A DNA stretch of 64,000 nt from contig NC_043012.1 in assembly GCF_006345805.1 (NCBI RefSeq), positions 19,902,001-19,966,000 on the forward strand, in the 5' to 3' direction. Numbering within the stretch: position 1 is the first letter of the stretch; each line of letters starts with the position of its first letter. The position numbers and the translations under genes are program-made. Under the pieces are notes generated by a model. It saw only the letters and a program-made list of their open reading frames with translations, was not told the DNA's origin and made no database searches. Shown here in pieces: positions 30,051-54,299 of the stretch. The stretch is from Octopus sinensis (taxonomy: Eukaryota).

Positions 30051-31327
30051 TAAGGTTGTCAAGAAATTTCTCGCGGAATTTTAAATTTTGGTTTCAAACG
30101 ATTTATTTCCAAATTAATTTTCATTAAATCATTTAGAAGTTATATATCATTTAGAAACTCATTTTTCACACTATCTAATCGCGTTACTCTTTTTTTCTTT
30201 TTGAATAATAACGCCATTTTTCCAGAAAGTTGAATACAAAATGGACAAAAAGCACATTCGCAAATTTTTCTTATTCCTGTTCAAGCTAGGCTGAAAAACT
30301 GCTGAAACAACTCGCGATAACAACGATGCTTTTGACCCAGGAACCACTAATGAACGTACAGCACAATGGAGTTTCAAGAAATTCTGTAGCAGTGACGAGA
30401 AGATGATATGCGTAGTTATCGGCCATCGGATGTTGACAACGGTCAACTAAGAAACTTAGTCGAAGGCAATCTGCGCACAACTGTTCGTGAGCTTGCTTCT
30501 GAATTAGACGTAATGTATACAACAATAGCCAACAACTTGAAAGAGATCGGAAAAGTAAAAATACTTCCGAAATGGGTACCGCAAGAATTGAACGACAGCC
30601 AAGAAAAACAACGCCGTTTTGAAATGTCGTCTTCCCTTTTACGCAACAAGAACGACTCGTTTCTCGACCGGATTGTGACTTGCGATGAAAAGTGGATTCT
30701 TTACGACAACCGGCGACGCTCAGCTCAGTGGTTAGACGCCAACGTAGCTCAACGTCACTACCCGAAGCCAAAGTTTCACCAAAACAAGGCCATGGTGTCT
30801 GTTTGGTGGTCTGCGGCCGGTCTCATCCATCACAGCTTTTGGGATCGAGGCGAAACCATTACAGCGAAGTACTGTCAGCAAATGGATTAAATGAATAAGA
30901 TACTCCGACAACAACACCCAGCATTGGACAATAGAAAAGGACCAATTCTTCTTCACGACAACTCACGACCGCACGTCGTACAACTGACCCTGTGCAAGTT
31001 GAACGAATTGGGATATGAAACTCTGCCTCGTCCGCCATGCTCACCAGAACTCTCGCCTACTGATTACCACTTTTTCAAACATCTCTACAACTTCCTGCGT
31101 GAGAAATGCTTCAAAAACCAAAACGATGCCAAACACGCCTTCAACGATTTCATCACCACCAGAACGCAGGATTTTTACGCTACTGGCATCAATAAACTTG
31201 TTTCGCGCTGGCAAAAGTGTGTTGATTCTGATGGTGTTTATTTCGATTGATAAAGTTTTGTTTGAGCCGAGATATGTTCATCGGAATTTAAAGGTTAAAA
31301 ACCTCAAGAACTTTCTTGACAACCTCA
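30051..31327 (+). mobile_element. Near full-length mariner transposon (cecropia/Hsmar1-like), 1277 bp
   Basis: TIRs TAAGGTTGTCAAGAAATTTCT / AGAACTTTCTTGACAACCTCA, with a left TA TSD. Confidence 0.92.
30241..31250 (+). pseudogene. Mariner D,D34D transposase, disrupted by a stop and frameshifts
   Basis: MDKKHIRKFFLFLFKLG*KTAETTR, WVPQEL, TCDEKWILYDN, LLHDNSRPH, PCSPELSPTDYHFF and RWQKCVDSDGVYFD. Confidence 0.92.
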
Positions 31328-44804: not shown

Positions 44805-45575
44805 CCCTGGGTATTCAAAATGGCCGTACACTGTCGGTACATGGAGTGCACGAAGCGGTTCACAAACACCATTGTCACTTGTGCCCACTTCTGAGGAAAG
44901 CTGCTTCCAGTTCCACATGAGTTGTCTGCCTTGGGACAACCTGGTTCAGCCGTATCTGGATTTCCTCCCATAGGTGTTCAATTGGATTCAAACACGGTCT
45001 GTGAGCCAACCACGGACTAAGAGCCAGGACGTCCATGGTAACCTGACCGTTTTGGAGGGAGCATTGTTCTGCTGGAACATGTGGCTATGTTAACGCGTGA
45101 AGAAGGGCAGGATGTGAGGTTTTAGGATCTGGTAGTCGTAGCGCTGCGCTGTGATGTCATTTCCTCTGCCTGCACCAACATTTTGGAACATATGGCGCCA
45201 CAATCCTCTGACTCAGGCCTTTTGCACTTTTGCGAGCTGTGATGACAGGCCCACGCGCAGGACGACGGCAATGCAGGTTCTTGGCGACCAGTCGACGTCG
45301 TACCATGTCTTCGCTGATGGGTCGCTGTCTAGTGCCAATTGTCTCGAGAGCTGAGGTGTCACAGGTGGATGAAGCAGTCTTTGCCTGGGCATGGTCTCCC
45401 CGAGGCATCCCCTGAGGGCTCGGTTTGCAGTGATGTTGGTGTTTTTGTATTGCTGTTGCAGGCGATAGATGGTGCTGACGTGGACATTGTAAGCTTTCGC
45501 AACAACCAGGGCACGCTGCCCTGTGTGCAATCGGCAGATAACCTGTTCTCTCTATGCTGCTGACAATCAGGTCAT
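44805..45575 (-). pseudogene. Tc1-like transposase remnant
   Basis: VAKAYNVHVSTIYRL (HTH), RRRL..LHCRRPARGP, FQQNNA, PWLAHRPCLNPIEHLWEEI (SPDLNPIE motif) and terminal GHFEY. Stops, frameshifts and an internal deletion. TIRs not resolved. Confidence 0.85.
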
Positions 45576-47065
45576 ACCTGATACATCCAAATTACGAATG
45601 CCTGGAACGCGGTTCATGTTGCATTTCGGTTTTCAGGACTATTGTTTGGGACTGCCATTCACAGCAGTCAACGCAGGTGCGTTTTTGGCATCTCGTTTCA
45701 GGGAAATTTGAAAGTGTACCTGAAATTTGAGTCTCGGTTATGAACCAGTATGTCTTCGAATATTTACATTTACATCCCCGAAATAAGGTTTCAGAATTTA
45801 CCATATAAATATGACATTTGGAAAAAAACGCGTTTCTGTATAGGCATGTTCTATTGTTCTTGTGTTCATTTCCATTCCCATGCATAAGTTTATTAGCAAA
45901 CATACGCATACAAACCAGGAATTATACATTTTAAAAAAATATTACAAGTGATGAGCTATGGCTGAATTTTGTTGAGAATGAACGACGAAAGAAAAAACGT
46001 TTAGAAATGAAGTATGGAAAATAAGCAAGTGATATGGAATAATGATATAAAATATAGTTTATCAGCGCAAACGTGGCATAATACGATTTTTTCTGCATGG
46101 ATCTCTACAGTTGCACCAATATAAATCAATAAGCCAATCGGAAAGATTCCAAAAGATAGGGAGAAAATGACGAAAATGAGATCATCGAAAAGTAGAACTT
46201 TTAGTCTAAGAAGAAAAATGAAAACCAGATTGTTCAAGTCACTAGAAGAAATAATTTGGGCAAAAAAATTATCATTTTTCATTTAGTTTCTGGCGTGAGA
46301 CTTCAGGAAAAATAAGATAATAACAGTAATCGATTGTCAGTGTGTAAGATTCCAAGGTCTGACCAAGTGATTACAAGTGTTCTGAGTACTGAATGAGTTA
46401 GATGCATCAAAAGCATATTACTGATGGGCCAACGAGGAAAAATAGATTAGCCGCACGATTGACTTTATAGAAAAGACAACTGAAATTCCATGAAATCACA
46501 TATTACTCTTATAACAGTGAATATGTGATGGAAGAAAACTAACTCTGAGGAAAAGTCTACCTCATCAGGAAACTAAACTGCGACTTAGTAACAGAAGTAA
46601 TGCAAATATAATGATAGAGTACGAAAAAAAATAAGTCAAAATTCTTGCATTTATTCTGAACGTCTTTGGGTGACATAAAAACGTGTGGATATTCAGCTGT
46701 ATTTCATTAATTATTCATATCTGACTGGTATAAAGGGCGCTTAAGTCTTATGCAGACAGCTGAAATGTCTCTTACATTTTGTACTTGATACCGCTACAAA
46801 ATATTTTCAAAATATTTTTTATCAAAATATAGACTTCACTTCGAGCCAGCCAGGACACAACGGCTCTGCATTAAATCAATAAATAAATATTTATAAATGA
46901 TTTTAGTTTGAAAATTGTTTCTGGAAAAGAAAAGTTCATCCAACCTCAAGTCATTTGCATATTAACAGGGAAAATATAAAGTGTGCCTTCCCAAATAAAA
47001 TGTTTGTGTATACTCGCAAGGGTAATTTGTGCGTGATTCCGAAATGCGTATATATAAGTACTTAT

Positions 47066-53392: not shown

Positions 53393-53661
53393 TTCTTCTA
53401 GAATAACATTTGTCACAAATGATTTATTCTGTTTCTCTTTTGTAAATAAAAATATTTTTAAAGAAACACTGGCTTTATGTTTCTACTTGTTTCGTAACTG
53501 GCAATATTTATATTCCGTATACATAAAATTTTCCTAACTATAACACGATTCTACGTTGTCACCATCTTACATGGAACATTAAATGCAATTGCTAACGATG
53601 TTTTTATAATGACCACAACGAAAATAAGACAGTTAGTATATATATATATACATATATATAT

Positions 53662-54188
53662 ATAATTAATCAATATAGGGTGGCAAAAAATTTTGTAGAA
53701 TTTTTTTGCCACCAGCGGCCTAGTGGGAAAAAATTAAATAGTCATAGACCATTTTTAAGTTCAACATCACAATCAAGGAACGGCCATAATAGGCCATTCA
53801 CCCACTAGAAATAACAGCCAAAGCTTCAACCGCAAAATAACATCAATTCCGTAAACCAGGAGAAAATTAAAAAACATTTACCCTGTAATTTCTTATACGA
53901 TGCACCGTTTCATCTACTGTTTAATGGTAAACTAACCTGATTAAATTAAATGAAGCCAATCTTCCATAGGCCCTTAGAATCATCAGTAAGAAATAGCCAA
54001 GTCGGAACAGATATTTTCACGAGGCATTTCCGCCCCTGCCTCGGCAATATCTGACCTAAAATTTTCAAATCATCGCACTCGCGCCAAATTTATCGGCAGC
54101 AAATAAATATAAGCCGCCGATTCCATTACGGAATTAACCAGAAAATTCATAATTAATCAATATAGGGTGGCAAAAAATTTTGTAGAAT
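53662..54188 (-). mobile_element. Retrozyme-like non-coding element: 487-nt unit with 40-bp terminal direct repeat and a hammerhead
   Basis: ATAATTAATCAATATAGGGTGGCAAAAAATTTTGTAGAAT is identical at 53662-53701 and 54149-54188. Flanked by (TA)n, no ORF of 60 aa or more, many hairpins. Confidence 0.75.
53888..53994 (-). ncRNA. Type I hammerhead ribozyme with enlarged, branched stem II
   Basis: Minus: ATTTCTTA-CTGATGA-T-TCTA-(58 nt)-TAGA-T-GAAA-CGG-tgca-TCG-TA-TAAGAAAT. Perfect 8-bp stem I, stem III with palindromic UGCA loop, GUA triplet. 10.1-11.1 is U/U rather than G-C. Confidence 0.75.
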
Positions 54189-54234
<46 letters not shown>

Positions 54235-54299
54235 ATATATACAGTATATTTATATATATTATGTTACGTTGCCATATATTGTAAAGGCATCTTAAAGTA

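Follow-up and report, generated by a model that had tools for sequence, protein, structure and literature searches.

A hammerhead-bearing, non-coding repeat family of Octopus sinensis with the two-start insertion ends of Penelope-like elements

The 64,000-nucleotide stretch of Octopus sinensis DNA analysed here, referred to as the window, contains a short segment that lies between two runs of (TA)n and ends with the same letters with which it begins. This raises the question of what kind of element the segment represents and by what machinery it reached its present site. A sequence-only reading had proposed a candidate retrozyme, a terminally redundant, structured unit with a hammerhead on its minus strand. 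Read-out of the sequence bears out the perfect 40-bp direct repeat (53662-53701 and 54149-54188), its spacing of 487 nt and the (TA)n on both sides. The insertion is laid out as follows.

53637..53661: (TA)n target, left side.
53662..54188, minus strand: whole insertion, one-armed and 1.08 units long; the RNA sense is the minus strand.
53662..54148, minus strand: repeat unit of family A, 487 nt.
54149..54188, minus strand: initial 40 nt of a second unit, a variable truncation end comparable with inner ends elsewhere.
54189..54241: (TA)n target, right side.
53845..54135, minus strand: long-range stem AAUUCCGUAA/UUACGGAAUU, surrounding not only the hammerhead domain but also hairpins at 54008-54053 and 54092-54121.

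That the element is terminally redundant is not borne out by other copies, in which 127 inner ends are scattered over the whole unit, from position 23 to position 487. The 40-bp redundancy in the window is a variable truncation point and not a terminal repeat. The accompanying suggestion, that a monomer plus 40 nt is what results when a circular or tandem RNA is copied for more than a unit's length, stands. Since the window copy has a single hammerhead, it cannot itself free a unit-length monomer through double cleavage. A 478-nt contig, X10, was considered as a closed unit and rejected; it bridges the unit junction but lacks 12 nt.

The unit has no ORF, as had been read: the longest frame from an ATG is 34 aa and the longest from stop to stop, in a tripled unit, 60 aa. 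It is also highly structured as described, with both strands folding better than all 100 shuffles (z = -4.51 for the minus strand and -5.74 for the plus strand, 0/100 shuffles being equally stable in each case), and all five pairs of complementary arms are found where they had been placed. GC content is about 30% in 2-kb windows around the unit. Elsewhere in the window, mariner/Tc1 transposase fragments lie at 30396-30890 and 45157-45591 (PF01359, E = 3.5e-19; PF01498 weak and below the cut-off).

The elements of a minus-strand type I hammerhead can be read in the sequence much as proposed, with the predicted cut between 53896 and 53895.

53888..53994, minus strand: type I hammerhead motif, stem I being 53994-53987 / 53895-53888.
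53986-53980, minus strand: hammerhead core CUGAUGA.
53911-53908, minus strand: hammerhead GAAA, with stem III at 53908-53897.
53895..53896, minus strand: predicted self-cleavage site, after GUA.
53924..53967, minus strand: long hairpin within stem II; a near-private change of the window copy at 53952 breaks one pair.
53969..53998, minus strand: predicted pseudoknot, GGC (53998-53996) with GCC (53971-53969); GGU/ACC in family B.

Stem I is AUUUCUUA/UAAGAAAU, the stem II domain comprises 68 nt, stem III is CG-GUGCAU-CG and the cleavage triplet is GUA, replaced by GUC in family C and some copies of family B (see below). Two sub-hairpins had been seen in the stem II domain; in the fold, stem II is instead short and carries a single long hairpin, a shape common to families A, B and C. 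The U.U said to close stem II is genuine as a trait of a sublineage but is not conserved, being found in two of 24 position-ordered family-A insertions, with A.U in 16. Taken alone, the hammerhead region folds with z = -2.0, 5/200 shuffles being equally stable. An Rfam scan of the window unit found no hammerhead at E<=10, the probable reason being the long insert in stem II, and a scan of family D gave no ribozyme match.

Core and stems are conserved over copies. The full core is present in 250 of 289 stem-III-anchored copies, for which core and part of loop III were prescribed by the search pattern, and the stems covary across families A, B and C. Pairs were counted in 92 copies, one per locus and family (57 A, 9 B and 26 C, one B copy being assigned to C by the sorting rule). 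The first pair of stem I is intact in 92/92 (shuffle mean 73.8, maximum 79), as A-U in A and B and as G-C in C. Pairs 2 and 4 of stem II are intact in 84/92 and 85/92 (shuffle means 48.7 and 44.2) and stem III pair 2 in 89/92 (shuffle mean 55.2), while stem II pair 1 is no better than shuffles (47/92 against 46.9). The bulge of stem I and the internal loop of stem II have a predicted contact, which is GGC/GCC in 54 of 57 A copies, GGU/ACC in all nine of B and GGC/GCC in 18 of 26 of C. RNAalifold, suggested as a check by the earlier reading, was applied to a MAFFT alignment and supported stem III together with the pairs of the pseudoknot and the hairpins of the tail; it missed stems I and II because alignment columns were misregistered, and the pairs of these stems were counted instead by anchoring on the core. 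The predicted hammerhead covaries over three families, with few independent events and in three or four lineages only. The 10.1-11.1 pair is frequently mismatched in families A and B, which, together with a CCGA core in family D, means that cleavage may be slow. The conserved core is understandable only at the RNA level.

The element is real, young and abundant. In genome G000 (2.7 Gb), 183 matches came from the best 40 of 631 candidates, among which full-length copies are mainly 98-99% identical, dispersed and often in tandem, the tandem arrangement being one of the outcomes for which a BLAST comparison had been advised. An exact 18-letter stem III pattern gave 1,840 + 1,801 = 3,641 matches (control 0), a lower bound, as the pattern covers families A and B only. 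Family B, with a unit of about 474 nt (L079:1271-1744), is about 74% identical to A; family C, with one of about 465 nt (L175:1501-1968), is 69% identical to B; overall, A, B and C are about 70-75% alike. Family D is a 501-nt distant relative with the same scaffold, reached by a profile match (L200:1501-2701; L190-L209). Its hammerhead has a longer stem III, a CCGA core in 8/8 pattern-matching loci of 19 and a possible AGGU/ACCU pseudoknot. Short hammerhead pieces with stem II domains of 55-60 nt are also seen between (TA)n tracts at L097:5830, L098:444 and L102:579; long stem II inserts occur repeatedly in this genome. At L136 (G000:C5:59.27 Mb) and L110, entire insertions are doubled a few kb apart with identical junctions, which may reflect segmental duplication or an assembly artefact.

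We mapped 72 insertions of families A and B, comprising 37 from the first 100 position-ordered motif matches on C1, 33 top similarity matches, which are biased towards young copies, and two more; the duplicate L136a was dropped, and L110a is probably a duplicate of L110b. Fifty-five of the 72 are two-armed, with the arms head-to-head, and 17 are one-armed. Their outer ends fall at two fixed sites, binned as S1 (unit position <=8) and S105 (positions 86-125).

53662..53665, plus strand: fixed start S1, its edge blurred through AT microhomology; putative downstream reverse-transcription start.
53766..53769, plus strand: fixed start S105, putative upstream reverse-transcription start, used by other copies.
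53662..53765, minus strand: 'tail', the 104 nt between the starts, on one arm only of inverted insertions (48/48).
53679..53713, minus strand: hairpin whose end lies, in the RNA, about 17 nt ahead of S1.
53779..53798, minus strand: hairpin whose end lies, in the RNA, about 13 nt ahead of S105.
53720..53808, minus strand: stem CUAGUGGG/CCCACUAG around S105; families B and C show compensatory changes in it.

In every two-armed insertion with both outer ends intact, 48 in all, S1 on one arm is paired with S105 on the other, an outcome with p = 3.6e-15 if arms picked their start randomly. The other seven comprise one cut at the locus edge and six with a non-canonical start. Family A starts of the S105 type lie at 100-111, mainly 104-108, and family B follows the two-start rule too. 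Among 16 family C insertions, 11 are S1/S2, one is S1/S1 (with a 24-nt arm) and four have non-canonical starts, so that the rule is kept in 11 of the 12 with canonical starts. Family D, whose starts are about 82 nt apart and whose ends are (TA)n, has 11 S1/S2 insertions and three with non-canonical starts (n = 14), the rule holding in 11/11. Across the four families the tail is about 80-105 nt long. Targeting of (TA)n, raised by the earlier reading, is clear: of 117 canonical starts, 115 have (TA)4 no more than 30 nt away, the background being 5.1% of window positions. Circular permutation, raised along with it, is not seen at the starts, which are fixed at the two sites.

Only three of the 127 inner ends fall at positions 231-238, near the predicted cut, where about two are expected, and the idea that inner ends mark the cleavage site was rejected. 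The 55 arm junctions comprise 33 overlaps, five abutting ends and 17 gaps. Inner ends seem to cluster at the start-site hairpins, with 21/127 at unit positions 23-67 (about 12 if uniform) and 20/127 at 112-146 (about nine if uniform). Two of ten non-canonical starts (L212 and L211) are no more than about 2 nt from the predicted cut, too few to weigh.

Similar ends are known from Penelope-like elements (PLEs). Passages of Frangieh 2024 (PMC11167929) describe a PLE protein, predicted to be a dimer, that nicks and extends both strands of AT-rich DNA and uses two internal RNA starts, the interval between them being a tail of 30-40 nt; for the anole PLE, they report that the hammerhead is not needed for insertion, with unprocessed RNA serving as the main template. 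Inverted 5'-truncated arms, a tail that is frequently one-ended and a bias towards microsatellites are described in parts of Craig 2021 (PMC8557442) and Arkhipova 2013 (PMC3846280). The octopus insertions have in common with those of PLEs two internal starts downstream of the hammerhead, an optional and one-ended tail, an inverted 5'-truncated arm, partial tandems and AT-rich, microsatellite or (TA)n targets. They differ in that the unit has no ORF, the tail is 80-105 and not 30-40 nt long and the hammerhead is full-size rather than minimal. Moreover, Frangieh 2024 saw no strand difference in start site in vitro, whereas here the pairing of one site per arm is strict. Hallmarks of PLEs include a pair of internal sites at which reverse transcription starts, a tail on one side only, inversion of a 5'-truncated arm and an AT-rich target, and we regard mobilisation of the PLE type, by itself, as highly probable, in keeping with the view of retrozyme mobility that the sequence-only reading had given.

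Candidate machinery is present in the same genome, where the best 150 of 5,029 GIY-YIG candidates were scored. Two young PLE families have an intact RT and GIY-YIG ORF and an upstream ORF (L095:674-4377; L102; L218). The ORF is 781 aa in PLE-A and 775 aa in PLE-B, with GIY-YIG above the Pfam cut-off and RVT_1 slightly below it. Both families end in (TA)n; the optional tail is about 40 nt in PLE-A and about 17 nt in PLE-B (15/20 ends). The hammerhead-like motif of PLE-B is minimal, its core being CCGA and its stem II having U.U at the base. PLE-B, which is autonomous, makes tandems and inversions too.

No sequence is common to the unit and PLE-A, PLE-B or other GIY-YIG loci examined, and an attached unit is absent from 45 PLE loci and 10 extended regions (of 5,029 GIY-YIG candidates). 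Using tblastn on 153 loci and the window, PLE matches were found in six loci. In two of these the match borders the unit, each time at a non-canonical start, and the unit position differs between them; nowhere in this set does an RT and GIY-YIG ORF adjoin the repeat at a fixed point. The solo PLE pseudo-LTR that the earlier reading had given as its alternative is disfavoured, as no canonical end lies next to a PLE ORF in the loci checked. An 80-nt fragment of another distant unit relative (L182:3802-3881), found by profile match, was rejected as a PLE-attached unit: it lies about 1.5 kb off the PLE fragment, beyond simple repeats.

PLE-like coding sequence is fused at three of ten non-canonical starts, the pieces coming from different PLE families. 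The PLE-B/retrozyme fusion at L210 was considered as a template switch and rejected. Its PLE part is 92-96% identical to its nearest relatives, and identity to the window unit is 98.6-100% for its retrozyme units; the PLE piece is thus older than the adjoining units, and a more likely course is that an older PLE underwent an insertion or deletion. Arms without a canonical start are often fused same-sense to another truncated retroelement (L210:3812, L211:2519, L216:2315, L110:1949, L215:3605). One fused ORF, which we take to resemble a restriction-like LINE endonuclease, had no match in a Pfam search, and another fused piece is presumably SINE-like.

The nature of the template can be approached through the arms themselves, which have a median length of 739 nt and a maximum of 6,791. 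The predicted cut is crossed at least twice in 68 of 125 arms, and up to 14 times. Of 227 crossings, 216 are free of indels, the indel rate being 0.062 against a median of 0.061, and such seamless crossing implies a template that was ligated or uncleaved, and not a cleaved monomer. Variants were analysed in 43 family-A insertions with at least three pieces, where 245 occur in every unit, 47 in a subset of units and 211 in one unit alone, giving 32 haplotypes. Most of those fixed in all units are subfamily marks, and 25 of 30 two-armed insertions have a fixed variant common to both arms. Among variants private to an insertion, 14 are fixed, 22 are in subsets and 137 are single; fixed ones span both arms in four insertions and subset ones in five. 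Fixed private variants require a single-unit bottleneck, which a circle provides simply. Sharing within a subset requires either a template that is multimeric or heterogeneous, or else duplication at a later time, conversion or an error of assembly. A mirror-unit test for a common linear template gave 17 versus 15 with one tie (n = 33), and L135 and L136 display higher-order patterns. A circular template is the best fit to the seamless crossings and fixed variants, and we think, with some reserve, that a circle probably was the template. The same PLE machinery and starts could also act on an uncleaved linear multimer transcript of an array, with the hammerhead slow or cutting later, which is possible though in our view rather doubtful. 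It would accord with the subset variants shared across arms in five insertions, the higher-order patterns, the mismatched 10.1-11.1 pairs, the dispensability of the hammerhead for PAc insertion (passages of PMC11167929) and the tandems and inversions that PLE-B likewise yields. It would, however, need repeated single-unit bottlenecks to give 32 haplotypes in 43 insertions with many variants in every unit, and it sits poorly with private variants fixed across both inverted arms in four insertions and with the preservation of hammerhead stems across diverged families; a partly cleaved multimer should also give some pile-up of inner ends at the cut, which is not seen.

A different origin of the arrays can be imagined, in which the unit is the pseudo-LTR and tail of an unsampled autonomous PLE and local unequal crossover has added units later, an amplification scenario discussed in the main text of Li et al. 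2026 (bioRxiv 10.64898/2026.07.22.740005). The PLE-type ends and the three non-canonical starts fused to PLE-like coding sequence fit this, and the 45 PLE loci and 10 extended regions cover a small share of the 5,029 GIY-YIG candidates. Against it, unit-to-unit junctions are seamless and free of ORF remnants, both arms are often multimeric with non-integer lengths, and private variants are mainly single-unit (137 versus 22 in subsets), as expected if the units were born together. The fused PLE pieces, too, are drawn from more than one family, and in the best case the piece predates the retrozyme units. We consider this origin unlikely. Helitron-like elements form tandem arrays of which one end is fixed while the other varies, insert at AT targets and bear terminal hairpins. 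The arrays, AT targets and terminal hairpins of the present family resemble these traits, and its structure might conceivably act as single-stranded DNA in a non-autonomous rolling-circle DNA element (HUH: Helitron- or Replitron-like). The hammerhead catalytic core conserved in 250 of 289 anchored copies makes sense, however, only as RNA, and alternative starts paired one per inverted arm are the PLE pattern, so that a DNA element of this sort appears very improbable.

Our preferred explanation is therefore of an ORF-less hammerhead element whose RNA likely cleaves itself and is closed into a 487-nt circle, which a Penelope-type RT-endonuclease likely copies into (TA)n from two starts; in this complete form it is slightly favoured. 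Arrays of at least two units would be transcribed from the minus strand, and neighbouring hammerheads would free monomers for a host ligase to close, by analogy with the account in PMC7229834. A PLE protein, probably a dimer, would nick both strands of (TA)n, one cDNA being primed at S1 and the other at S105, each immediately beyond a hairpin. Each cDNA would travel around the template for a variable distance, and the cDNA ends would then unite, often via microhomology, to give head-to-head arrays. Where a single arm was made, a one-armed copy such as that in the window would be left.

This explanation has a more ambitious extension, which we offer tentatively and which may well be wrong. A dimeric Penelope RT would reverse-transcribe a single genome-encoded RNA circle in rolling-circle fashion and in two directions. 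One strand of the nicked (TA)n would prime each subunit, which would be locked to one of two hairpin-marked starts 104 nt apart. Families A-D would then be an old circular-RNA parasite lineage, keeping its fold and its pseudoknotted, hairpin-extended hammerhead with no sequence trace of the PLE partner. Several observations weigh against the preferred explanation. No PLE examined shares the unit sequence, and the tail exceeds both the 30-40 nt of the literature and the tails of PLE-A (about 40 nt) and PLE-B (about 17 nt). Private subset variants (22) outnumber fixed ones (14), and five insertions share a subset variant across arms, which is not what a single monomeric circle would predict. By analogy with the anole PLE, as described in passages of PMC11167929, the hammerhead may be dispensable for insertion.

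How does the family compare with known elements? The pDo500 unit is reportedly about 500 bp. pDo500 is a hammerhead-bearing satellite of cave crickets (PMC2837043), and can be likened, by description alone, as a hammerhead-bearing repeat. Animal non-LTR retrozymes were defined, their circles shown and PLEs named a strong mobilisation candidate in the main text of Cervera and de la Pena 2020 (PMC7229834), while that of Li et al. 2026 discusses PLE co-occurrence, pseudo-LTR phylogeny and local amplification. In both, PLE mobilisation of retrozymes and circle templates were proposed earlier from common hammerheads, co-occurrence and phylogeny. The octopus element is likewise a short, non-coding, dispersed, multicopy tandem repeat, ranging from monomers to multimers, with one type I hammerhead per unit (full core in 250/289, Rfam being blind to the motif), no LTR, low GC, a highly paired fold and co-occurring PLEs. 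By these sequence criteria it is an animal non-LTR retrozyme, for which self-cleavage and circles are predicted; unit, copies and absence of an ORF all support the non-autonomous, hammerhead-bearing tandem element first proposed. A U.U at the stem II base is also found in axolotl HHR_Amex2 (main texts of PMC7229834 and bioRxiv 10.64898/2026.07.22.740005).

There are also differences. The unit of 487 nt exceeds the 170-400 nt given in PMC7229834, at least in its main text, although the preprint range of 51-972 bp includes it. A 44-nt stem II hairpin and a predicted pseudoknot belong to the hammerhead here. Pseudoknotted hammerheads are known (passages of Perreault 2011, PMC3088659), but the putative one here has only 3 bp (4 in family D) and arises from the internal loop of an extended stem II. 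Xenopus retrozymes have pseudo-LTR homology in 24/57 families according to the main text of the preprint, whereas none was found here. Word searches of the main texts of PMC7229834 and bioRxiv 10.64898/2026.07.22.740005 found no two fixed starts, inverted arrays or (TA)n targeting, nor the words 'tail' or, in a relevant sense, 'inverted'; the same two words are absent, the latter again in a relevant sense, from the portion of the 2020 review PMC7761336 that was covered. A literature search, with supplements, Repbase and Dfam outside its scope, found no paper describing the family or such an end pattern in a retrozyme. Set against these main texts, what is new is the long tail, the extended pseudoknotted hammerhead and a countable rule of one start per arm that links the element to PLE chemistry.

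The insertion junctions themselves bear the PLE two-start signature in four related families. They provide junction evidence for PLE mobilisation, a step that the retrozyme papers, in their main texts, only propose. The one-site-per-arm rule, in turn, suggests an origin for the inverted insertions and tails of PLEs, which is left open in the relevant passages of Craig 2021 (PMC8557442). With a 487-nt RNA, mapped starts and intact candidate enzymes in the same genome, these questions become testable in the published PLE in vitro assay.
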